From: Gemmatimonadota bacterium
GTDB lineage: Bacteria > Gemmatimonadota > Gemmatimonadetes > Gemmatimonadales > GWC2-71-9
Direction of reading: 5' to 3'
Length of the DNA: 64,000 bases
NCBI GenBank assembly: GCA_003221005.1
Contig: QHTZ01000081.1
Coordinates: 19,725-83,724, forward strand
The notes beneath the pieces were generated by a model. The model searched no databases. It worked only from the letters and a program-made list of their open reading frames with translations, and was not told the origin of the DNA. Made by a program: the position numbers and the translations under genes. This document shows positions 15,799-51,033 of the stretch, piece after piece (position 1 is the stretch's first letter; every line of letters starts with the position of its first letter).

Positions 15799-17159
15799 GG
15801 CGCGGCACGCCGCGTGACGCTCACTCCCTCGAGCAGCACCGACGGCGTGTTGCGCGCGCCGTACCAGCGGCGGTCGCTCCCGAACCCGGCGATGCGCTGC
15901 AACAGGTCGTAGCTGTTGCCCGCGACGGCCGCGTCCTTCACGCGACCGACGATCTCACCGCGCCTGATGCGATACGCGAGCGCCACCGGATGGCTGAACG
16001 CCCCGCCGCTCACGTTCCCCTGCCCTACCCCGATGAGGTCGTCGACCAGAAGACCGTCGGCGATGTCGCCGAGCAAACCGCCACCCAACTGTAGGGGCAC
16101 GGCATGCCATGCCCCTACGGAATACCCGTCCCCCTTCCCCCGTCCCTCGTCCCCTATGATGAGGTTGGTATATCCGACGACAGGCTTCGAAAAAATGGCG
16201 CGCTGCCCGTGCCCCGTGCTCATCGTCCCGGCACGGGCCGCGGTCTCGAGATCATAGATGAACCCCTGCACGACGCCACGTTGCACGAGGCACGTGGCGC
16301 GCGACGGCACGCACTCGTCGTCCACGGGCCGTGACGACGCTCTGCCGGGAGCGAGCGCGTCGTCCGTGAGCGAGAACGCTGGATCGAACATCTGTTCGCC
16401 GACCTTCGCGGCGAGGGGCGAGATGCCCTGCAGCACGGCCTTGCCCGAGAGGGCCTGGGTGAGGGGCAGGAGCACCGCGGTAAGTCCGGCGGGCGTGAAT
16501 ATGACCGGGAGCGCGCCTTCGGGCGGGTCGGTGACCTTGAGGGCAAGATCGAGGCGCGTATTGACCGACTGTGCGATGCGAGCGACGTCGGCCGCGCTCG
16601 GGAGATCGGCGCCCTCGAACGCGTCGCCGAGCACGAGCACGTCGTCGCCCGCGACGCGCCACAGGTCGGCGCTCACCACGACGCCGGTCGATTGGTAGCT
16701 CGAGTCGGCGCCGGCCGAGTTCGCCACCCGCGTCTCGGCCAGCTCGCGCTCGACGCTGACGTTGACCTGGCACCCATCGCGCGCGAGCTGTGCGACGAGC
16801 CCGGCCCCGAGCTCGATGAGGGCATCGAGCGACGCGCCGGCTGCCGCAGCGAAGAACGTAGGGACGTGGGGGAGCGGGGTGCGCGACGGAAACGCGAGCG
16901 TCAGCTCCGCGCCCAGCTCGGCCGAGGCGAGCGCGCGGCTCACCAACTCGTCAGGCGCGGCAGCGACGGCGGTCGAGCCCGCCACGCCGACCCGCCCGCC
17001 GCTCACGACCCGCAGGTTGACGCCCGCCTCTTCCGTCACCCCCGCGGCCTTTAGGCGGCCGAATTCGAACGCGACGGACGTCCGCTCCGACCGGCGCCAC
17101 AGGGCGTCCGCGGTGCCCGCCCCGCGGCGCCGCGCCTGCTCGAGCAGCCGCTCGATCAC
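15795..17159 (-). CDS. pmbA: PmbA/TldE metalloprotease-family protein carrying an in-frame repeat insertion
   Basis: GTG at 17159 (GTGA overlap with the tldD stop) inside track ORF 15795..17447. TldE-like C-terminus GQGNVSGGAFSHPVALAYRIRRGEIVGRVKDAAVAGN. Confidence 0.85.
   Translation of the reverse strand: MIERLLEQARRRGAGTADALWRRSERTSVAFEFGRLKAAGVTEEAGVNLRVVSGGRVGVAGSTAVAAAPDELVSRALASAELGAELTLAFPSRTPLPHVPTFFAAAAGASLDALIELGAGLVAQLARDGCQVNVSVERELAETRVANSAGADSSYQSTGVVVSADLWRVAGDDVLVLGDAFEGADLPSAADVARIAQSVNTRLDLALKVTDPPEGALPVIFTPAGLTAVLLPLTQALSGKAVLQGISPLAAKVGEQMFDPAFSLTDDALAPGRASSRPVDDECVPSRATCLVQRGVVQGFIYDLETAARAGTMSTGHGQRAIFSKPVVGYTNLIIGDEGRGKGDGYSVGAWHAVPLQLGGGLLGDIADGLLVDDLIGVGQGNVSGGAFSHPVALAYRIRRGEIVGRVKDAAVAGNSYDLLQRIAGFGSDRRWYGARNTPSVLLEGVSVTRRAAP
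16091..16154 (-). repeat. G-arm plus hairpin repeat element inside the pmbA CDS
   Basis: Minus strand: GGGGACGAGGGACGGGGGAAGGGGGACGGGTA-ttcc-GTAGGGGCAtggcatgccgTGCCCCTAC. The 32-nt G-arm is 29/32 identical (hand count) to 28760-28791. Confidence 0.8.
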
Positions 17160-22723: not shown

Positions 22724-23347
22724 CTAGCTCTTCTCCCCCGCCCACAACCCCTGCCCCGCCGCGAGCTGCCGGATCCCGGGCGGCGGCACGACATCCTCCC
22801 GCTCGACCACGAACCGCCGTCCTCTGAGCAGCACGCGCTGGCCTTCCTCGAACCACGGCGGAGCCGCCACGTCCGCCCCCAGGACGACGCCGCGCGCCAT
22901 CGCCGGACGCAGCGGAATCACTCCCGCCGCGCGCACCAGGCTGAGCACCGGCAATTCCTCCGCATCGCTCGGCGCATTCACGCCGATGAAGTGAACCCCA
23001 CCCCTCAGTCCCGCTAGGCCCACCGCGTGCCGCACTCCGTCACCCACGAGCACGATGAAGCCGCCGGGGCCGGAGAGATCGAGGAGGGCCTGGAGGGTCT
23101 GTGCGTCATCGGGACGAAGGACGGGGGACGGGGGACGGGTGGCGGCGGGGCCACGTCCCACGTCCCTCGTCCCCCGTCCCGTGAAATCGACGACCCCGTG
23201 CACAATCGGATACTCCCGCTTGCAAATGGGACATCCCACGATCCCCGAGCGTACCATCCGTCCGAGCATCTCGCCCGTCGACAACACGAGGACGCCGAGC
23301 TCGTGCGGCTCGGGGCAGCGCAGCATCTCCGTCAACTCGATGTGCAT
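22724..23347 (-). CDS. Trm112-like zinc-ribbon protein fused to a degenerate methyltransferase-like domain; carries an in-frame repeat
   Basis: 207 aa. MLRCPEPHE...GCPICKREYPIVHGVVDF is the Trm112 pattern. C-terminal part DLSGPGGFIVLVGDG is Rossmann-like. Confidence 0.6.
   Translation of the reverse strand: MHIELTEMLRCPEPHELGVLVLSTGEMLGRMVRSGIVGCPICKREYPIVHGVVDFTGRGTRDVGRGPAATRPPSPVLRPDDAQTLQALLDLSGPGGFIVLVGDGVRHAVGLAGLRGGVHFIGVNAPSDAEELPVLSLVRAAGVIPLRPAMARGVVLGADVAAPPWFEEGQRVLLRGRRFVVEREDVVPPPGIRQLAAGQGLWAGEKS
23111..23181. repeat. inverted heptamer-array repeat (GGGACGG / CCGTCCC arms) inside a CDS
   Basis: GGGACGAAGGACGGGGGACGGGGGACGG (left), 14-nt centre, ACGTCCCACGTCCCTCGTCCCCCGTCCCG (right). 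About 24 of 28 positions complementary by hand count. Encodes TGRGTRDVGRGPAATRPPSPVLRP. Confidence 0.8.
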
Positions 23348-28758: not shown

Positions 28759-28759
28759 G

Positions 28760-28828
28760 GGGGACGAGGGAGGTGGGACGGGGGACGGGTAAGACAACGG
28801 GGCGCCTGCTGATTAGCGGGCGCCCCGT
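28760..28828 (+). repeat. G-arm plus hairpin repeat element in a convergent intergenic gap
   Basis: GGGGACGAGGGAGGTGGGACGGGGGACGGGTA (28760-28791), spacer, then hairpin ACGGGGCGCC...GGCGCCCCGT (28797-28828). No U-tract after the hairpin. Confidence 0.8.
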
Positions 28829-36108: not shown

Positions 36109-38067
36109 TCAGTATGGTTCGTCCGACAGCGGGTTGAGGGGCGGCACCGCCTCGCGCGCGCGTCCGGCGGGCTCGGCCGCCGCGACCCGCGCCCCTAGCG
36201 CCCGCCGGAAGAACGCGAGCGGGTCTTCGGGCCGGGCGCGCCGTGTCGCGGCGAGCGCGCGGCGCACGTCATCCGGCGCGCGGTCGACGATGAGGTCGTG
36301 CACCGCGTTCGGCCGGATCCTGCGGTCGAGCCTGAGGAGCTGGCGCACGACCGCGTCGGCGAACGGCAGATCGGCAGCGGGTGGGAACCGCTCGACGCCG
36401 TCCCGCCCGCGCAGCACCGCGGGCCGCGGGAACCGCACGAAGATCGGTTGCGTGAAATGCGGGTGGCGCACCATCAGCTCGCCGATGGGCAGGGTGGCGA
36501 GCTTGATCTTGGTGGCGGGCGAGAGCACCTGGTAGCCGGGCGTGGCCAGCTCGTCGTAGTCCATACGCCCGTAGACGATCGTGCCGGCGTTCCCCACCAC
36601 TCGCCGATGTACCTGCGAGCGGAACTGCTCGGCGCCGAAGAGCACGAGCCCAAGGTAACGCCCGCGCTCCGAGATATCGAGCAGCATCTTGCGGACGTAC
36701 GTGTCCGGCCCGTCGGCCGGCGCGTACTTGTTGAGCTCGTCCACGAACACCACGACGGCCTCGACGCCGAGATCGCGCCGCTCGAGGTGCTCGCGCAGCT
36801 GCGACACGACGCGCGCAAACACGAGGTCCTGGCCAAGCGGATCCACGTTCGCCAGATCGACCACGTACACGGCCCGGTCCTCGAACGCGCCCCACGGCAG
36901 GTCGTTCGAGGGGCCGTCGTCGGTGACGAGCCCCTTGCAACGGGTCGAGATGTTGGAGAGCCGGTTCCGGACCTTGCGCATCGTCGCGATGTGATGAGTG
37001 CGCCACATGTCGCTGCGGCCTGCCAGCTCGAGCCCGTCGAAGATGGCGCGGAACAGCGCATCCAGGTCTGCGAACGTCTGGACCCGATGGGTGCCGCCGA
37101 AGCCATCGTCGAACTCCCGGTTGAGCACCCGGTCGGCGAGGAAGTCGATGAATGCGTCGGCCTTGGCGTCGATGTCGTCGCGGTTCAGGAGCACTTCGGC
37201 GAAGTCGAGCACCTCCTGGAGGCCCCACACGAGGGGCTCGACGGCGCCCACGAGGTCGGGATGGGTGCGCAGCGTATTGAGGTTCACGCCGTCCGCCTTG
37301 AAGGGCGCGTAGTAGCGCACCCGGCGGAACGGCTGCGGCGCGACCCCGAGCCGCTCGTAGCGGCGGCGGTCCGCGTCGTCGAGGCTCCCCGGCTGGTCGA
37401 GGAAGCAGAGGTCGGGACCCTTCACGTTGAAGCACACGGCGGCAATCCGTCCCTTGTGCGCCGGGAAGTGCTGGAAGATGGACGACAACAGGAACTCGAC
37501 GGCGCTCGTCTTGGTCGCGAGTCCAGAGACGCCCGAGATGTTGAGGTGAGCCGCTTCAGGACCGTGCAGGAAGTCCGCGTCCAGGTAGACCGGCGCCTCG
37601 AGCCCTCCCGAGGTGTACAGCCCCACCGGGATGGCGGTGGGGGTGGCGCCCTGGAGGTAGGTCTCCATGCGGAGGGCGCGGGCCACGTCAGGGTCGGTCG
37701 CCACGAACACGCGGCCGAGCGGGACCGGCTGCAGCGGCTCCTCGGGCTCCTGGCGCAGCACGGCCGCGGTCCACAGCCGAATCTCCTGGCGCACCGTGGG
37801 GCTGTCAGCTGCGCGAGCGGGATCTCCGTCGGCGCCGACCACGTCGTGCAGTGGGGTGGCAAGGTCGGAGTAGGCGAACCCATCCGTCACAACCCCGAAG
37901 ACCACCCTTCCCTCTTCCCCCGTCCCACTTCCCTCGACCCTGACAATCGCCCCGATCCCGATCGCCGTCTCGGTAGCGGTCCAGAAGTGGAATTGGTGCG
38001 GCGTCGCCGGCTTGAGCTCGGTGGCGACCACCCGGCCGACCGGCTCCGGCGCCCGTTTCTGGATCAC
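36109..38067 (-). CDS. herA: HerA-like (DUF87/FtsK-HerA superfamily) ATPase
   Basis: 652 aa, GTG start. HAS-barrel-like N-terminus (HQFHFWT...GAIVRVE...VFGVVTD). P-loop region NISGVSGLATKTS. Walker B VVVFVDELNKYAP. ERGRYLGLVLFGAEQFRSQV. Confidence 0.8.
   Translation of the reverse strand: MIQKRAPEPVGRVVATELKPATPHQFHFWTATETAIGIGAIVRVEGSGTGEEGRVVFGVVTDGFAYSDLATPLHDVVGADGDPARAADSPTVRQEIRLWTAAVLRQEPEEPLQPVPLGRVFVATDPDVARALRMETYLQGATPTAIPVGLYTSGGLEAPVYLDADFLHGPEAAHLNISGVSGLATKTSAVEFLLSSIFQHFPAHKGRIAAVCFNVKGPDLCFLDQPGSLDDADRRRYERLGVAPQPFRRVRYYAPFKADGVNLNTLRTHPDLVGAVEPLVWGLQEVLDFAEVLLNRDDIDAKADAFIDFLADRVLNREFDDGFGGTHRVQTFADLDALFRAIFDGLELAGRSDMWRTHHIATMRKVRNRLSNISTRCKGLVTDDGPSNDLPWGAFEDRAVYVVDLANVDPLGQDLVFARVVSQLREHLERRDLGVEAVVVFVDELNKYAPADGPDTYVRKMLLDISERGRYLGLVLFGAEQFRSQVHRRVVGNAGTIVYGRMDYDELATPGYQVLSPATKIKLATLPIGELMVRHPHFTQPIFVRFPRPAVLRGRDGVERFPPAADLPFADAVVRQLLRLDRRIRPNAVHDLIVDRAPDDVRRALAATRRARPEDPLAFFRRALGARVAAAEPAGRAREAVPPLNPLSDEPY
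37905..37937 (-). repeat. solo G-arm heptamer repeat inside the herA CDS
   Basis: Minus strand TCGAGGGAAGTGGGACGGGGGAAGAGGGAAGGG. 20/21 identical to 28765-28785 by hand count. GGG every 7 nt. Encodes EGSGTGEEGR. Confidence 0.7.
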
Positions 38068-39052: not shown

Positions 39053-39832
39053 CTAGCGGGTCCGCAGTGCCCAGCCGATGTAGGTGATGCTCGTGTCGTC
39101 CACCAGGGAGCGGGTCCCGTCGGGCGCCCGGCCCACGCCCTTCACCTCCTGCACCACCATGCCGTGGCGCGCCAGCCCGTCGCCAAGCTCGGCGGGCGTG
39201 ATGAAGCGGGCGAAGTCGTGGAAGCCTTCGGGCATCGTATGGCGCACGTATTCCTCTTCCCAGATCAGCTCGAGGAACGCGGCCAGAGTGCGGTTGTGCG
39301 TAAGGAAGCCGAGCCCGCCACCGGGGGCGAGCACCGTGGCGATCGCGTCGACGGTGGCGTCGAGGTCCTCCACGTGCTCGAGCACGTCCACGGCGAAGAC
39401 GAGGTCGAAGCCCACCCCGAGCCCGCCCGACGCGAGCGCCTCGGCCGTGCCAAGCCGGTAGTCGATCGAGAGGCCGGAGCGCGCCGCGTGCTCACGCGCG
39501 GCCGTGAGGGACTTTTCCGACGGATCGACCCCGGTGACGATCGCCCCCTCGCGGACGAGCGTTTCCGCCAGGATCCCCCCGCCGCACCCCACGTCCAGGG
39601 CGCGCTTCCTGCCGAAGCCGCCGAACACCGTGCGGAAGTACTCGACCCGCAGCACGTTGAGCTGATGCAACCCGACGAAGGGACCCGCGTCGCTCCACCA
39701 CACGCCCGGGACGCGCTCGACGAGGCGTTCGTACTTGTCCGGCTCGGAAAGCCCGCCGACGCGGGGGAGGGAGTCGGTCAGGCCGTGGCCTCGACGTCGA
39801 CGTTGGGGAAGGGTGGCACCTCGAGGAACCAC
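39053..39832 (-). CDS. class I SAM-dependent methyltransferase (UbiG-like)
   Basis: ALDVGCGGGILAETL motif I. DLVFAVDVLEHVEDL. FLTHNRT...EEEYVRHTMPEGFHDFARFITPAEL is UbiG-like. Start (GTG 39832) is uncertain because it overlaps the upstream gene by 55 nt. Confidence 0.75.
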   Translation of the reverse strand: MVPRGATLPQRRRRGHGLTDSLPRVGGLSEPDKYERLVERVPGVWWSDAGPFVGLHQLNVLRVEYFRTVFGGFGRKRALDVGCGGGILAETLVREGAIVTGVDPSEKSLTAAREHAARSGLSIDYRLGTAEALASGGLGVGFDLVFAVDVLEHVEDLDATVDAIATVLAPGGGLGFLTHNRTLAAFLELIWEEEYVRHTMPEGFHDFARFITPAELGDGLARHGMVVQEVKGVGRAPDGTRSLVDDTSITYIGWALRTR

Positions 39833-40367: not shown

Positions 40368-41542
40368 ATGCAACGGCGGGAGTTCGTCTCGGTGGCTGGG
40401 GCCCTGGTCCTGGCGGCGACGGAAGGACGGAAGGACGGAAGGGGGTGGCGGGGACGTTCCGTCCTTCCGTCGTTCCGTCCTTCCGTCGCCTCTCAGGAAC
40501 CAGCCCTCTCGCCCGAAGTCTTCTCCCGCCGCCTCGCGCGCGCGCAGGCGGAGCTCAAGACCCGCAAGTGGGACTTCCTCATCGCCACGCCAGGCACGAC
40601 CTACCTCTATTTCACCGGCTACAACCCGGGCCGGAGCGAGCGGCTCATCGCGCTCGTCATCCCCGCGAGCGGCGAGCCCGCGATCGTGTGCCCGTCGTTC
40701 GAGGTGGACCGCATCAAGCGCCATGCGACGGCGCTCGACATCACGGGGTGGGAGGAGCCGGCGAATCCCTATAAGCTGGTCGAGCGCGTGGTCCGCGCGC
40801 GCAAGCCCCGGGCTCCCGGGACGATCGCGCTCGAGTCCTCGACCGCGTTCGGATCGTATCTGGGCATCAAGGACGCGCTTGGGGGCTGGAAGTTTGAAGA
40901 TGCCGCCGCCATCACCGACCGGCTGCGGATCATCAAGTTTCCCGAGGAGATCGCGCTGATCCGCCGCGCGATCGCGATCACCGAGGACGCGATGGCGGCC
41001 ACCTTCGCGCAGCTCGCCGTGGGCGTAAGCGAGCACGACGTGGCGGGGGTGCTCGAGCGGGAGATGGAGCGGCGCGGCGGAGAGGGGGGCGGCGGGCTGG
41101 TGCAGTTCGGGCCGTCGAGCGCCCTGCCGCACGGCGGCCCCGCGAGCGTCACGCTCGAGCGCGAGATGGTGGTGCTGATCGATTGCGGCTGTCGCGTCTC
41201 GGGCTATACGTCCGACATCACGCGCACGATCTGGTTCGGCGACCATTGGGCCGGCCCCTCGTCACCCCATGTGAGGAAATGGATCGCGCCGCGCGCAAGG
41301 TGATCAGCGACGCCGGCTTCGGCCGTAACTTCACCCACCGCCTCGGCCACGGAATCGGCCTCGACGGCCACGAGCCGCCGTATCTCGTCGAAGGAAACGA
41401 GGTCCACCTCGAGCCAGGGATGGTGTTCACGCTCGAGCCAGGGGTGTACCAAACTGGGAAATTCGGAGTGCGGATCGAGGATGACTGTCTGATGACGGAG
41501 AACGGAGTTGAGGTCCTGAGTCACCGACCGTCCAAACTCTGA
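40368..41542 (+). pseudogene. M24-family (creatinase/prolidase-like) peptidase with Tat-type signal, repeat insertion and internal frame break
   Basis: Track ORFs 40368..41303 and 41183..41542 are two frames of one gene: ...GYTSDITRTIWFGD | ...LVTPCEEMDRAARKVISDAGFG..HRLGHGIGL..LEPGVY..GVRIEDD. About 19 aa of the usual helix region is missing. Confidence 0.7.
40419..40487 (+). repeat. inverted octamer-array repeat (GGAAGGAC / GTCCTTCC) inside the M24 CDS
   Basis: GGAAGGAC GGAAGGAC GGAAGGGG gtggcggg gacGTTCC GTCCTTCC GTCGTTCC GTCCTTCC GTC. Encodes TEGRKDGRGWRGRSVLPSFRPSV directly after the signal peptide. Confidence 0.8.
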
Positions 41543-41907
41543 CGGGGACGAGGGACGCGGGACGGGGGACGCGTGGTGCCGAGGCGGCGGCGTAGGCTAT
41601 AGATGAGGCCGATCAACAGCCCCACGACCTGATTGCTGAGTACCAGCGCCTCGTCCACCGATTTCGCGGGCGCAAGTTCTAGGTCTCGCACCAATTCGAG
41701 ATGCGTGCAAAGCTCCGTACCGGAACCGAGGGCAATCCCGAGCGCGTAGCCTTCAGCGATGTTCGCAGGAATCGCCGCCGCCGCTCGCCGGATCTGATCC
41801 GCGAGTCCATAATGGCGACTGAGAGGTGGCTCGAGCGTGAGGCGATAGGCGACGCGCGCGACGGCGCGACCGCGCGTCCACGCCTGCAAAGAATCGAGCT
41901 TTCGCAC
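41521..41907 (-). CDS. four-helix-bundle protein (23S rRNA intervening-sequence protein family), shortened
   Basis: 128 aa, GTG start. YGLADQIRRAAAAIPANIAEGY...IALGSGTELCTHLELVRDL. About a dozen residues usually found between AEG and IALGS are absent. The C-terminal tail reads into the left repeat arm. Confidence 0.7.
   Translation of the reverse strand: MRKLDSLQAWTRGRAVARVAYRLTLEPPLSRHYGLADQIRRAAAAIPANIAEGYALGIALGSGTELCTHLELVRDLELAPAKSVDEALVLSNQVVGLLIGLIYSLRRRLGTTRPPSRVPRPRQSLDGR
41541..41573 (+). repeat. G-rich heptamer arm (left flank of the four-helix-bundle gene)
   Basis: GACGGGGACGAGGGACGCGGGACGGGGGACGCG starts at the TGA of the M24 gene. Confidence 0.75.
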
Positions 41908-41979
41908 GAATAGAAGTTGGAATGCCGCCTGCCATGGTAGGAGTCATTCCGCCGCATCCATGGTCCTTTCGCCGCAACA

Positions 41980-42008
41980 CTCGTCCCCCGTCCCTCGTCC
42001 CCCGCCCC
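41980..42008 (+). repeat. C-rich heptamer arm (right flank; inverted copy of 41541-41573)
   Basis: CTCGTCCCCCGTCCCTCGTCCCCCGCCCC. Its reverse complement contains GGGGACGAGGGACGGGGGAC, 19/20 identical to GGGGACGAGGGACGCGGGAC in the left arm. It ends at the stop of the aminotransferase gene. Confidence 0.75.
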
Positions 42009-43195
42009 TAGTCTCCTAGCTTCTTCGCAAACCCCACGATCTTCTCCAGCGCCCGCTCGATGTCCCCCGTCGCCGCCGCGTAAGACAATCGCACGTAGCG
42101 ATCGTCGCCGAACGCCGAGCCGGGGACCAGCGCCACCCCCGACTCGGTAATGAGACGGGTGCAGAACTCCGTGCCGCTCGAGCCCCCGAGCGAGTCTACG
42201 CGGAAGAAAAAGTAGAACGCGCCCAGCGGATCCACGAACTCCACGCCTGGCAAATCGCGGCGGAAGCGGCCGACCACGAGGTCGCGCCGCTTGCGGAACT
42301 CCGCTACCATCCGCATCACGTCCTGCTCCACCCGCTCATCGCCCAGGGCGGCGGCCGCGGCGAACTGCGCCGGGTGATTCGCCCCGGTGGTGGTATGTGA
42401 CTGCAGCGCAGCCATGGCCTTGGCGATCTTGCCCGGCGCGAGCGCGATGCCGATGCGCCACCCCGTCATCGCATACGCCTTACTGACCCCGTAGATCACG
42501 ACGACGCGCTCGAGCAGCTCGTCCGGAAGATCGAGGAACGACGGGGCCGGTCCCGGACCGTAATGGATGCGCCGGTAAATCTCGTCGGTGATCACCCACA
42601 CCTTGCGCTCCACCGCCCACTGCGCGATCGCCTTGATCTCGGCGTGCGTGTAGACGCCGCCGGTCGGATTGCAGGGCGAGCACAGGATCAACCCCTGGGC
42701 CCCGGGCACCACGCGCTCGAGATCGCGCACCCCCACCTTGAGACTCCACTCCGGATCGCCGGGCACGAGCACGGGCCGCGCGCGCGTGAGGTGCACGATC
42801 TGGGGATACGACACCCAGGCAGGAGCAGGGATCGCCACCACGTCCCCCGGGCCGAACAGACTGAAGCAGACGTTGAACAGCGACTGCTTCGAGCCGTTGG
42901 AGATGACGACGTGATCGGCGTTCACGGGCCGCCCGCCTGAGAGCAGCGAGAGATGCTTCGCCGCCGCGGCACGGAGCTCGAGGATCCCCTCGTTCGCCGG
43001 GTAGTGGGTCTTCCCCTCCCGAATCGCCCGCACGCCGGCGTCGGCGGGAATCGACGGGGTGGGGAAATCCGGCTCGCCCGCCCCGAGGTCGATCACATCC
43101 TCTCCCGCGGCGCGACGCCGCTTCGCCTCCTGGGAGATGGCGATCGTGGCGGATGTCTCGAGATGCTGAAGGTTGGGCGACAGCCCCTGCGACAT
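42008..43195 (-). CDS. pyridoxal-phosphate-dependent aminotransferase (class I, AspC-like)
   Basis: ATG at 43195 inside track ORF 42008..43597. GEPDFPTP, YPANEGILELR, NPTGGVY, SKAYAMTGWRIG. Confidence 0.9.
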   Translation of the reverse strand: MSQGLSPNLQHLETSATIAISQEAKRRRAAGEDVIDLGAGEPDFPTPSIPADAGVRAIREGKTHYPANEGILELRAAAAKHLSLLSGGRPVNADHVVISNGSKQSLFNVCFSLFGPGDVVAIPAPAWVSYPQIVHLTRARPVLVPGDPEWSLKVGVRDLERVVPGAQGLILCSPCNPTGGVYTHAEIKAIAQWAVERKVWVITDEIYRRIHYGPGPAPSFLDLPDELLERVVVIYGVSKAYAMTGWRIGIALAPGKIAKAMAALQSHTTTGANHPAQFAAAAALGDERVEQDVMRMVAEFRKRRDLVVGRFRRDLPGVEFVDPLGAFYFFFRVDSLGGSSGTEFCTRLITESGVALVPGSAFGDDRYVRLSYAAATGDIERALEKIVGFAKKLGD

Positions 43196-44657: not shown

Positions 44658-44696
44658 CAGGTGTGACGTCTGACAGGTGTGACGTCTGACGTCTAC
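44658..44696 (+). repeat. tandem 16-mer (CAGGTGTGACGTCTGA x2 plus partial) built from GTSTGAC heptamers
   Basis: Units at 44658-44673 and 44674-44689, then CGTCTAC. Overlaps the HU stop codon (44693-44695). Confidence 0.8.
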
Positions 44697-45228: not shown

Positions 45229-45834
45229 ATGCTCAACGGCGCCCGCCCCGGCTGGATCGAGGTCATTACCGGCGTGATGTTCAGCGGCAAGAGCGAAGAG
45301 CTGATCCGCCGGGTGCGCCGCGCCGTGATCGCCCGCAAGCAGATCCAGGTCTTCAAGTCCCACCTCGACGCCCGGTATGCCGGGCTCTACAACGTGGCGA
45401 CGCATGACGGCCTCACGGTCGAAGCCGCGCCGGTGGACTCTGCCGAGGAAATCATGCGACAGGTCCGGCCCGCGACCGAGGTGGTCGCGGTGGACGAGGC
45501 GCAGTTCCTGGATCACGGGATCGTCGGCGTGGCGAACGCCCTCGCGGACCGCGGCGTTCGGGTGATCCTCGCCGGCACCGACACGGACTTCCGGGGCGAG
45601 CCGTTCGGCGCGATGCCGACCCTGATGGCGATCGCCGAGATCGTCGACAAGTTTCAGGCGATCTGCGTCGTGTGCGGCGGGCCCGCCACGCGCAACCAGC
45701 GGCTGGTGGACGGCCAGCCCGCACAGTGGAACAGCCCGGTCATTCTGGTGGGCGGGCGCGAATCGTACGAGGCCCGCTGCCGCCACTGTCATCGCGTGCC
45801 GAGGATGGATGAGGATCAAACTGCGCTACTCTGA
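45229..45834 (+). CDS. tdk: thymidine kinase
   Basis: 201 aa. [15 protein letters not shown]-loop, VDEAQFL, and Zn ribbon [13 protein letters not shown]...CRHCH. Confidence 0.93.
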
Positions 45835-45912
45835 ACGCGGAACGCGGAACGCGGAACGGGGAATCGACGCTGGCTGGTTTGTTCCGCGTTCAACCTTCCG
45901 CGTTCCGCGTTC
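45833..45912. repeat. inverted heptamer-array repeat (GAACGCG / CCGCGTT) exactly filling the tdk-coaE gap
   Basis: GAACGCG x3, GAACGGG, GAATCGA, loop, then CCGCGTT CAACCTT CCGCGTT CCGCGTT. Starts inside the tdk TGA and ends 1 nt before the coaE ATG. Confidence 0.85.
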
Positions 45913-46905
45913 ATGTTAAACGTCGCCCTCACCGGCAACATCGCCGCGGGGAAGTCGACCGTCGTAGGGTTTTTCCGGCGGTGGGGCGCCACGATCGTGG
46001 ACGCCGATGAGCTGGCGCGGGAGGCCGAGGCGCCGGGGAGCGAGGTCCTCGCCGCGATCGCGCGGCGCTTCGGCGCCGACGTGCTGGCCGCCGACGGCTC
46101 GCTCGACCGCGCGGCGCTGCGCTCCAAGGTGATGGCCGACGATGCGGCGCTCGCCGACTTGAATACGCTGGTTCACCCCACCGTGCAGCGCCGCCGCGCC
46201 GACCTGGTGCGGGAAGCGGAGCAGCGCGGCGACGTGCTGGTGGTGAACGACATTCCGCTGCTGTTCGAGGTGCTCGACCCCGCCCGGTTCGACGTCGTGG
46301 TGCTCGTGGACGCGCCGCCCCCGCTGCGGCTCACGCGCCTGCGGGCGATGCGCGGCCTCTCGAACGAGGACGCCGACCGGATGATCGCGGCGCAGATGCC
46401 GGCGGAGCGCAAGCGCGCGCGCAGCCAGTACGTGATCGAGAACGCCGGATCGCTGCCCGAGCTCGAAGCCCAGGCGCGCACCGTGTTCCGGGAGCTGCGC
46501 CGCCGCGCCGCCACGCACGCCCTCGGCCGGCCCGCCGAAATCCTGGTGCTGGCTGCGGCCGACGCCAAGGACGACTCTCCCGCGCTTACCGCCACCGCCG
46601 CCCGCTACACCGAGGCCGGCGTGCGCGTGCAGCGCGCGGCCGGGAAGGCGGCCCTCGCGGCGGCCGCGAAACTCAAGCCCCAGGCGACGCTGGCGACGGC
46701 GCGGGCGGCCGCCCCGGCGCGCGAGGCGTGGGAAGGCGCGGGCCGCCCGGGGGCGCTCCTCTATTTCAGCGACGACCCCGACCCCGTCGCCGTGCGCCTC
46801 GACCTGCGTCCCTGGGGCGGCGACCGGCTGGCGCTCGTCGAGGAGGGAGCGGCCGGGTTGCCGCCCCGCGCCGATCTGTTCCCGTCGGGCAAACCGTTGG
46901 CTTGA
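45913..46905 (+). CDS. coaE: dephospho-CoA kinase with ~130-aa C-terminal extension
   Basis: 330 aa. LTGNIAAGKST P-loop and a CoaE core to about residue 200, then an Ala-rich region and LLYFSDDPDPVAVRLDLRPWGGDRLALVE. Confidence 0.85.
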   Translation: MLNVALTGNIAAGKSTVVGFFRRWGATIVDADELAREAEAPGSEVLAAIARRFGADVLAADGSLDRAALRSKVMADDAALADLNTLVHPTVQRRRADLVREAEQRGDVLVVNDIPLLFEVLDPARFDVVVLVDAPPPLRLTRLRAMRGLSNEDADRMIAAQMPAERKRARSQYVIENAGSLPELEAQARTVFRELRRRAATHALGRPAEILVLAAADAKDDSPALTATAARYTEAGVRVQRAAGKAALAAAAKLKPQATLATARAAAPAREAWEGAGRPGALLYFSDDPDPVAVRLDLRPWGGDRLALVEEGAAGLPPRADLFPSGKPLA

Positions 46906-50272: not shown

Positions 50273-51033
50273 AGCACCTCCTGGTGGACCCCGTGGGCCG
50301 CCGCGGGTGGGTCAACATGTCCTTCGACCAGGCCCTGCTCGACGACGCCGACCGGTTGGGAACCGCCACACTCCGGCTCTACCGCTGGGATCCCCCCTGC
50401 CTCTCCCTCGGCCGCAACGAATCCACGCGCCACTACGATCGCGCCCGGATCGCACAACTCGGAATAGACGTCGTGCGGCGGCCCACCGGCGGGCGCGCGG
50501 TGTGGCACGAGCACGAAGTCACCTACGCCGTCGCCGCGCCCGTGGATAGGTTCGGCTCCCTGCGTGCCGCCTACTGCACCATCCATCAGAGGCTCGCGGC
50601 GGCGCTGCGATCCCTCGGCGCCGATGCCACCCTCGCACCCACCCGCCCAACCGCCAAACCGCCTAACCGGCTCTCCGCCTGCTTCTCACACCCAGTCGGC
50701 GGCGAGGTGCTGATCGCCGGGTGCAAAGTCGTCGGCTCCGCCCAGCTGCGGCAGGGCGATGCCTTTCTGCAACACGGCTCGATTCTGCTGGGAGGGGCGC
50801 AGGAGACGATTGAAGCTGTCATCCGTCAGCCGTCAGCTATCAGACATCAGACTTCAGACGTCAGAACCGCGACGACGCTCTCGGCTGCGCTCGGTCGATC
50901 GGTAACGTTTGAGGAGGTTGCCAACGCCATCATGAGCACGTGGGGCGACGGCTTCAGCTCTACCGCCCCCTACCGCCCCTTACCGTCCCTTACCGCCCTT
51001 TTCTCAGACCCTTCCTGGACCTGGCGTCGCTAG
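50269..51033 (+). CDS. lipoate-protein ligase/octanoyltransferase-family (BPL/LPL catalytic domain) protein with repeat-derived 3' end
   Basis: ATGA overlap with the gcvP stop. [55 protein letters not shown]. Confidence 0.75.
50823..50864 (+). repeat. six tandem heptamers (CCGTCAG-type) in-frame in a CDS
   Basis: CCGTCAG CCGTCAG CTATCAG ACATCAG ACTTCAG ACGTCAG. 42 nt = 14 codons ([14 protein letters not shown]). Complement-type of the 44658 array. Confidence 0.8.
50961..51000 (+). repeat. four tandem decamers (TACCGCCCCY)
   Basis: TACCGCCCCC TACCGCCCCT TACCGTCCCT TACCGCCCTT. Encodes the [10 protein letters not shown] tail. Confidence 0.8.

Follow-up and report, generated by a model that had tools for sequence, protein, structure and literature searches.

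Organization of the locus

The element described here lies within a 64-kb stretch of DNA from a Gemmatimonadota bacterium of the Gemmatimonadales (NCBI GenBank assembly GCA_003221005.1, contig QHTZ01000081.1, positions 19,725 to 83,724 of the forward strand). This stretch is referred to as the window, and coordinates are given within it unless stated otherwise. The element consists of a gene for a four-helix-bundle (4HB) protein, of the family encoded in 23S rRNA intervening sequences (IVS), enclosed by two inverted arms of tandem heptamers. It fills the gap between an M24 peptidase gene and a convergent aminotransferase gene, whose stop codons (TGA at 41540-41542 on the plus strand and 42008-42010 on the minus strand) are separated by 465 bases. 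These bases contain the two arms and a minus-strand open reading frame (ORF, 41521-41907), and the aminotransferase gene is located directly upstream on the same strand as this ORF. The features of the locus are as follows:

41974-42008, minus strand: 5' arm, G-rich on the coding strand (GGGGCGG GGGACGA GGGACGG GGGACGA GTGTTGC), right after the aminotransferase stop
41908-41973, minus strand: leader of 66 nt running from the 5' arm to the GTG start, kept in part in orthologous cassettes (GTGTTGC..GAAAGG..)
41521-41907, minus strand: 4HB ORF of 128 amino acids (PF05635/TIGR02436, S23p/Avd-like), which runs through the 3' arm and ends within the M24 gene
41736-41737, minus strand: junction of a 30-nt in-frame deletion (G57/I58), with TTPQFIRFLR absent relative to all non-identical homologues
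41545-41579, minus strand: 3' arm, C-rich on the coding strand (plus strand GGGACGA GGGACGC GGGACGG GGGACGC GTGGTGC), translated as the protein tail and adjoining the M24 stop
41540-41542, plus strand: M24 peptidase stop TGA, the right-hand insertion boundary on the cassette coding strand
42008-42010, minus strand: aminotransferase stop TAG, which overlaps the M24 stop (CTAG) in relatives with an empty site

A repeat search delimited the arms at 41545-41579 and 41974-42008 (35 nt each, 394 nt between them, 86% complementary, with a 19/20 match over a 20-nt core). Both arms are made of four tandem GGGACGN heptamers. The first base of the M24-side arm lies 3 nt past the TGA, and the last base of the aminotransferase-side arm (42008) is also the first base of the cta stop. 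The motif GGGACGNGGGACG, with up to one mismatch allowed, occurred 24 times in the window compared to 2.2 expected occurrences, and 0/100 shuffles reached 24. When scored by hand, the arm pair received a value of 20, and 265 shifted controls placed in other loci reached 16 at most. With an aminotransferase and an M24 peptidase as flanking genes, the cassette is situated outside any 23S rRNA gene, unlike IVS in helix 25 or 45 of such a gene; no Rfam family, rRNA included, matched the whole 64-kb window at the gathering threshold. A preliminary description of this region, made from the letters alone, had proposed inverted arms bounded by the two stops and a 23S-IVS-type gene between them, and this layout was confirmed.

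Four-helix-bundle gene and protein

The ORF matched PF05635 at 63.1 bits (cut-off 33.8), its sole Pfam match, and TIGR02436 at 61.4 bits (cut-off 24). A profile of its homologues matched PDB 2GSC (XCC0516, a pentameric four-helix-bundle protein) with E = 2e-22.

The window protein lacks exactly 10 residues (TTPQFIRFLR) between AEGYALG and IALGS, at the turn of helices 2 and 3, which agrees with the dozen or so residues that had been suspected to be missing there. In an alignment of 25 homologues, this deletion was confined to the window protein and an identical cluster representative (P0001), and the residues were present in 24/24 non-identical homologues. The identical deleted protein was recovered from five contigs of separate samples, one of them the Gemmatimonadetes metagenome-assembled genome GCA_003221975.1, and was therefore considered a real allele and no assembly error. 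The nearest intact orthologue at the same site (locus L166; loci are designated by L numbers) was 85% identical. A complete bundle of this family has ~115-125 residues, and an AlphaFold2 model of the deleted protein retained four helices with a mean predicted confidence (pLDDT) of 88.6, a value that gives no measure of stability, and loss of function through the deletion is likely.

The C-terminal tail of the protein (TRPPSRVPRPR) is the translated 3' arm. Given that an arm-translated tail (TRPPSPVPRP or TLPASPFPLP) is common to most homologues, it was considered a trait of the family and no mark of decay. The gene had earlier been suspected of degeneracy on account of both the gap and the tail; the 10-residue deletion bears out the first of these, and the tail does not count toward it.

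Substitution rates were calculated by the Nei-Gojobori method. Between the window and L166, the nonsynonymous rate (dN) was 0.024 and the synonymous rate (dS) was 0.86, for a ratio of 0.03, and dN/dS was 0.06-0.21 in the remaining orthologous pairs with an estimable dS. The 4HB protein is therefore under strong purifying selection, and the deletion in the window must be recent. No PADLOC defense-system model matched the window protein or two intact orthologues. The gene is present as a single copy, with no further 4HB paralogue detected by tblastn in the 64-kb window.

Cassettes in related genomes

Relatives of the window protein were sought in one genome per species, which yielded 80 loci from more than 10 phyla (Gemmatimonadota, Cyanobacteriota, Planctomycetota, Chloroflexota, Alphaproteobacteria, Acidobacteriota, Verrucomicrobiota, Armatimonadota, phyla of the candidate phyla radiation, and others). 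At 74/80 loci, the inverted repeat around the gene had a score higher than the 95th percentile for shifted controls (median score 20 versus 9 in controls), and almost all of the bracketing arrays in these 74 loci had a period of 7. The cassettes were uniform in size, with a median span of 488 bp (interquartile range 452-508, compared to ~470 bp in the window) and arms of ~4 units. The unit itself varied by lineage (GGGACGA, GGGAAGN, GGGTGTA, GGGAATA, GGGAGTC, GGCAGTC, and others), and no conserved terminal sequence was shared between lineages. The preliminary description had asked whether paralogues carry the same arms. The window holds no paralogues, and in relatives arms were indeed present, each lineage with its own unit.

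The G-rich arm was positioned 5' of the coding strand in 61/65 loci (p = 4e-14), and the window copy conforms to this polarity. Such a fixed orientation of the gene relative to the G-rich arm would not be expected from a random drop into the loop of an existing hairpin. The gene downstream of the cassette was on the same strand in 40 loci versus 10, as judged by a crude heuristic (open-frame length in GC-rich DNA), making the convergent arrangement in the window the minority case.

Among loci on finished plasmids and replicons, arms were present in 5/6 (Gemmatirosa kalamazoonensis, Azospirillum lipoferum, Picosynechococcus, Pseudanabaena, and Leptolyngbya). Two of these cassettes were located within CRISPR-cas operons and were co-directional with them: one between cas10 and cmr3 on a plasmid of Picosynechococcus PCC 7003 (L171, 2966-3364), and the other between cas6 and cas4 on a plasmid of Pseudanabaena galeata (L172, 2813-3444). 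A large clustering study counts the 4HB family among those associated with CRISPR (PMC10910872), and insertions of this kind into cas operons probably explain such scoring in large surveys.

Two other plasmid copies are described here for their structure. Plasmid AZO_p2 of Azospirillum lipoferum 4B (L169, 2945-3413) holds a complete cassette with GAGGACG-type arms and a 4HB ORF that is unannotated in the PLSDB gene table, a table that is incomplete by design. On plasmid 1 of Gemmatirosa kalamazoonensis (L168, 19827-19915), the 5' arm is composed of an 8-nt unit (GAGGGCAG) repeated four times, followed ~25 nt on by its own inverted copy. Judged from its sequence, this 5' end can form a local hairpin by itself besides pairing with the 3' arm.

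Insertion sites in relatives

The gene order aminotransferase-4HB-M24 was recovered at nine other loci (L001, L006-L009, L019, L077, L166, and L167). A metagenome scan with the aminotransferase gene identified five empty sites in relatives of comparable divergence (L088, L089, L091, L092, and L093; 84-89% identity), and at each of these the two stop codons overlap (gaC TAG ag..), leaving zero intergenic bases and no hairpin. The preliminary description had pictured an empty hairpin as the alternative state. Filled and empty states were both found, and the empty state is free of a hairpin at all five sites.

In the closest relative (L086, with 96% identity in the aminotransferase), the 4HB gene is gone and the gap measures 105 nt. 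It is made up of the 5' arm, ~40 nt with homology to the leader of the cassette, and a 3' arm that is degenerate. Because the cassette leader is still present, the L086 hairpin was interpreted as a deletion derivative of a complete cassette. At L077 the 4HB gene is truncated at its 5' end.

Left junctions of L008, L009, L019, and L077 contain 10-14 nt resembling the 3' end of the M24 gene (for example TGAGATTCGCGGG compared to TAGAGTTTCGCGGG at an empty site). To judge by the sequences, this remnant resembles a target duplication that has decayed; the window copy shows no visible trace of it. Genes of the 4HB family at the aminotransferase/M24 site stand closer to one another than to other Gemmatimonadales 4HB genes, a grouping that favors one old insertion.

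A second insertion site was found nearby, between a 173-amino-acid gene of a domain of unknown function (DUF) and a methyltransferase gene. It is occupied in L167 (5225-5735, intact) and in L087 (4515-4925, truncated) by a 4HB gene of an unrelated lineage (~38% identity to the window protein) with arms of the 9-nt unit TNTGGAGGT. In the window this second site is empty, and the DUF and methyltransferase genes overlap (39778-39832).

A different palindrome, resembling repetitive extragenic palindromes (REP) and with the sequence CCCCGGGCGCAAGCCCGGGG, is present in one or two copies at the aminotransferase/M24 junction in L087 (2581-2685) and L090 (3677-3718). This stop-stop junction is a hotspot for hairpin elements.

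Arm evolution and predicted fold

Cassettes at the aminotransferase/M24 site carry two different units, GGGACGN in the window, L006, L007, L166, and L167, and GGGAAGN in L008, L009, L019, and L077, and the change from one unit to the other is mirrored by a complementary change in the opposite arm. Covariation was assessed in the six copies that could be aligned in register (L007, L019, and L086 were dropped due to repeat-register shifts that made their alignment ambiguous). In these copies, 95.6% of arm cells pair and 7/30 pairs had changed on both sides. The covariation score was 0.209 compared to 0.079 in shuffles, with 0/500 shuffles reaching the observed value, and slid controls gave no compensatory change. 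Four of the seven covarying pairs represent one heptamer position altered in all four units, which therefore indicates concerted evolution and not seven independent events. The arms thus remain complementary while the sequence of their unit changes. Both the minimum-free-energy fold and the centroid pair the arms as a terminal stem around the ORF (z = -3.9).

Heptamer arrays near 4HB genes

The GGGACGN unit was found again in the window at 16125, 23111/23151, 25312, 28759, and 37905. Across the related loci, the cognate unit recurred within 3 kb in 16/65 (24 arrays), and non-cognate units recurred 0 times in five controls. The density of period-7 arrays was 20.2 per 100 kb in sequence flanking 4HB genes and 1.3 per 100 kb in a comparison set of 62 loci taken from unselected genomes (~15-fold), and for periods 5, 6, and 8-11 there was no difference between the two sets. 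Unit similarity tracked protein similarity (Mantel p <= 5e-4).

Comparison with known systems

The IVS in the 23S rRNA of Coxiella burnetii is 428 nt long. Its terminal inverted repeats pair into a 28-bp stem, and it has GACAGAT heptamers in tandem, three to four of them depending on the strain (PMC4990558). The S23p ORF that it contains has a poor ribosome-binding site and is regarded as expendable by the authors of that study, and RNase III excises the IVS (PMC4990558). The window cassette resembles 23S rRNA IVS (Coxiella, also Leptospira and Xanthomonas) in gene family and in size (~470 nt versus 428 nt). It shares with the Coxiella IVS a terminal stem of ~28-35 bp around the ORF, heptamer arms of variable number, a poor or absent ribosome-binding site, and an ORF that decays in some strains. 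Unlike these IVS, it is located between the stops of two protein genes. Its unit is GGGACGN, not the GACAGAT of Coxiella. Strong purifying selection on the protein in this lineage also sets it apart from the Coxiella IVS, and RNase III excision, shown for Coxiella, is putative here.

Heptamer repeats were described in Xanthomonas campestris by Rehm et al. 2015, who reported 186 GGGAATC-type arrays with four units preferred and 70 arrays in inverted pairs (PMC4692102). Those arrays lie beside stop or start codons and form G-quadruplexes in vitro (PMC4692102). A four-unit GGGAATC-type array is listed in the supplement of that study 6 nt from bccP and overlapping the annotated start of XCC0516, the crystallized member of the 4HB family; the family itself is unmentioned in the paper (PMC4692102). 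The window arrays are similar to the Xanthomonas and Nostoc repeats (GGGNATC) and to the short tandemly repeated repetitive (STRR) sequences of cyanobacteria in having a unit of GGG plus four bases, a preference for four units, a position within a few bases of stops or starts, frequent inverted pairing, and a dispersed distribution. The Xanthomonas and Nostoc repeats were described as stand-alone arrays, whereas here an inverted pair encloses a 4HB gene, as in 74/80 homologous loci. Both window arms read (GGGNNNN)x4 on the G-rich strand and, as a sequence pattern only, conform to the G3N1-7 x4 rule for such structures, as do 36/65 related cassettes; certain units are not rich in G at all.

Systems of REP doublets forming hairpins (REPINs) and REP-associated tyrosine transposases (RAYTs) likewise have one gene between inverted copies of a short repeat that is also dispersed without the gene as intergenic hairpins in the same genome (PMC3116915). 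Unlike the RAYTs, which are HUH/Y1 (IS200/IS605-like) transposases, the window gene is matched by PF05635 only, and its arms are tandem arrays, not the single palindrome of a REPIN. PF05635 is also the Pfam family that matches Avd of diversity-generating retroelements (PMC10053308), and the two share a homologous four-helix-bundle fold and a pentameric ring. Unlike Avd, no reverse transcriptase (RVT domain) was present among the annotated neighbors of the orthologous loci L001, L166, and L167 (Aminotran_1_2, Peptidase_M24, methyltransferases, DbpA, and Bac_DNA_binding); no search was aimed at template and variable repeats. Like MITEs (inverted-repeat transposable elements of miniature size), the cassette is short, has terminal inverted repeats, is inserted between genes, and varies in presence or absence. 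Unlike MITEs, it contains a conserved gene under selection, has ends that vary in sequence, and lacks a general target-site duplication. A literature search turned up the Coxiella IVS study, the Xanthomonas/Nostoc repeat study, and the CRISPR-associated listing of the family, and found no description of a general association between the 4HB family and heptamer arrays.

Interpretation and alternatives

The feature is interpreted as an IVS-type cassette of ~470 bp, composed of a 4HB gene and two terminal inverted arrays of about four heptamers, and the probability of this reading was estimated at roughly 0.6. The gene and its arms are one inherited unit and arrived together. Comparison of filled and empty sites shows that the cassette was inserted exactly at the overlapping aminotransferase and M24 stops, apparently in an ancestor of this Gemmatimonadales group. 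Some lineages have since kept it, others carry a damaged copy (the deletion in the window), and in the closest relative a hairpin without the gene is all that is left. The IVS-type 4HB cassette is represented at this locus by a new variant outside rRNA.

In the proposed mechanism, the transcript, probably read-through from the aminotransferase gene or else the cassette's own, would fold the arms into a stem of ~30-35 bp enclosing the ORF. By analogy to the Coxiella IVS, RNase III would cleave this stem, and such cutting would allow the cassette to sit harmlessly in rRNA, operons, and zero-length gene junctions. At the DNA level, the arrays would stay uniform and complementary through slippage and template switching in the quasi-palindrome. 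Nucleic acid is the most likely ligand of the pentameric Avd-like protein, plausibly in the form of its own heptamer arrays, and it would be this binding, and not a metabolic role in the host, that selection preserves.

A number of results weigh against this reading. The 80 loci cover the relatives nearest to this subfamily, as opposed to distant PF05635 members such as those of Bacteroidota or Leptospira. Heptamer arrays are mostly gene-less in the window genome and in others, and they could represent an independent genomic process that the cassette merely exploits. No sigma-70 promoter or intrinsic terminator was found in a scan of 41400-42150, and inspection of eight syntenic copies by eye revealed no Shine-Dalgarno motif. 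At L008, an intact 4HB gene persists without a 5' arm, and arms are therefore not strictly required for retention of the gene. A search for target-site duplications around 64 cassettes gave the same result for real and shuffled pairs. Filled and empty lineages interleave on the aminotransferase tree, and because its backbone bootstrap is only 3-20%, one insertion with several losses is inseparable from repeated insertion or recombination. Lastly, G.U mismatches were equally numerous in sense and antisense RNA (43 versus 44), with no RNA-specific signal, so the complementarity of the arms is not attributable to RNA-stem selection and may be kept at the DNA level instead of via an RNA stem. Slippage combined with template switching in quasi-palindromes is an established mutational mechanism, and it explains the arm pattern at least as well as RNA-stem selection does.

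Dependence of the REPIN/RAYT kind was regarded as unlikely. Here the 4HB protein would create, spread, or maintain heptamer hairpins, and the gene-bearing cassette would be the master copy. It would account for the gene-less dispersal of the flanking repeat in the window and near the 16 other loci (with non-cognate units absent), for the excess of arrays at period 7 and at no other period, for the link between unit and protein similarity, and for strong purifying selection on a protein whose family forms ring pentamers (2GSC; PMC4990558). Such correlations can equally stem from common descent and taxonomy. The 4HB family has no known catalytic motif, Avd being only a cofactor of reverse transcriptase. 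Window hairpins are built from at least three other units (AATGCGG, ACGCGGA, GACGGAAG) with no cognate gene within 64 kb, and the gene-less hairpin of L086 arose by internal deletion, not by mobilization.

A non-enzymatic version of this dependence, proposed with similar reserve, is that PF05635 ring pentamers read tandem-heptamer hairpins by TRAP-like binding to the 7-nt units of their own arms and of dispersed cognate arrays. Cassettes would then be the autonomous master copies behind ORF-bearing rRNA IVS, cyanobacterial STRR sequences, and G-quadruplex-type repeats of Xanthomonas and Nostoc.

It is more doubtful that the element is a MITE-like non-autonomous transposon, with arms of ~30 bp read by a transposase encoded elsewhere and the 4HB gene as a passenger. 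Terminal inverted repeats, clean presence or absence at orthologous sites, the duplicated M24 end at four left junctions, and gene-less hairpins elsewhere in the window would all suit such an element. A transposase would have no fixed end to bind, however, as arm sequence is lineage-specific even at one site (GGGACGN versus GGGAAGN) and only the period is conserved. The 64 loci gave no target-site duplication signal, and the supposed passenger is always of the same gene family, in a single orientation, and under purifying selection. The preliminary description had offered a small non-autonomous element with terminal inverted repeats as one option. The discrete inserted unit with filled and empty orthologous sites was upheld, and its non-autonomous character was not, given the selected gene, the lack of a shared terminal sequence, and target duplications limited to possible remnants in L008, L009, L019, and L077.

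The other option offered there, that a hairpin already present in the convergent gap (a bidirectional terminator, for instance, or a repeat found across the genome) received the 4HB gene in its loop, is very improbable. Gene-less hairpins of the GGGACGN unit do exist in the window (such as 23111-23180), and the junction attracts other hairpins, such as the REP-like palindrome of L087 and L090. Against this, the five empty sites have neither hairpin nor gap, the sole gene-less heptamer hairpin at the site (L086) keeps the leader and is hence derived, orientation is fixed in 61/65 loci, and the same unit architecture recurs in more than 10 phyla. Least credible is chance low complexity, or in-situ slippage around a resident inherited gene with no element involved: tandem arrays do slip easily, unit number varies among orthologues, L008 has lost one arm, and arrays of other periods and units occur inside window ORFs, but the motif is far in excess of expectation, the arms covary between orthologues, empty sites exist, and the same architecture and size are found in unrelated genomes and at the second nearby site.

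Implications

PF05635/TIGR02436 belongs to the large protein families whose function is unknown, and in many bacteria no other long simple repeats are as over-represented as heptamers. To our knowledge, an accepted origin of rRNA intervening sequences has been lacking for more than 30 years. At this locus and in its relatives, the 4HB gene and its inverted heptamer arrays make up a single unit of fixed polarity, conserved across phyla and under purifying selection, and its insertion is base-pair precise at gene junctions, CRISPR-cas operons included. This makes several questions testable, among them the binding target of the protein, whether the arms serve as RNase III sites that spare neighboring genes, and whether gene-less heptamer hairpins are descended from, or dependent on, 4HB cassettes. 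For annotation, proline- and arginine-rich tails on 4HB proteins and on neighboring ORFs can be recognized as translated repeat arms. The broader pattern of gene and repeat is a more interesting result than the single locus. The case hints that the 4HB family and the abundant bacterial heptamer repeats belong together; the genome-level results fit REPIN/RAYT-like dependence and also fit common descent and taxonomic confounding.

Other repeats and the M24 gene in the window

Arrays of the cassette unit located elsewhere in the window are as follows:

16125-16154, minus strand: lone array of four GGGACGN/GGGAAGN units, adjoining a GC-rich hairpin
23111-23180, strand not assigned: gene-less GGGACGN hairpin of four units, a 14-nt loop, and four units, inside a minus-strand ORF (22724-23347)
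28759-28789, plus strand: lone GGGACGN array, right after a TAG and ahead of a terminator-like hairpin
37905-37935, minus strand: lone degenerate array of GGGAAGN/GGGACGN

Translation of the hairpin at 23111-23180 gives a linker (..GRGTRDVGRGPAATRPPSPV..) behind an N-terminal part that contains cysteine.

Gene-less hairpins of other units were also observed. One at 45831-45915, (ACGCGGA)x4 with a 19-nt loop and (TTCCGCG)x4, fills the spacer between a TGA and the next ATG, and another at 1814-1909, (AATGCGG)x5 with a 38-nt loop and (TTCCGCA)x3, lies between divergent starts. No cognate 4HB gene for the ACGCGGA or AATGCGG hairpins was found in the 64-kb window. Direct tandem arrays without an inverted partner were seen at 50638-50669, 50814-50865, 50960-50998, and 44658-44694. 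Their types include period 8 (CCCAACCG), period 7 (GTCAGCC/ATCAGAC, ~7 units), and period 10 (CTACCGCCCC). A further direct array is a 16-mer duplicated beside a terminator-like hairpin, and several direct arrays are apparently within open reading frames.

The M24 gene of the window is broken near 41247 (ORFs 40368-41303 and 41183-41542) by a 64-nt deletion relative to L001, a contig of GCA_003221975.1 that is otherwise 99-99.7% identical and has an intact M24 gene of 412 amino acids. Substitutions relative to L001 were clustered in 40600-41100 (28 in total), with 0-2 per 200 nt elsewhere, and the broken gene is either a fresh pseudogene or a recombination patch. Within the M24 coding sequence at 40418-40487, just past an RREF twin-arginine-like signal, there is an in-frame hairpin of tandem 7-8-nt repeats. 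The same position is occupied in L006, L009, L087, L088, L090, L091, and L093, with no hairpin in L008, L019, and L077. The units of this hairpin differ entirely among orthologues (GACGGAAG, AATGCGA, GCGGATT, GGTCGGAC, and others), such that the architecture has been kept and the sequence replaced.

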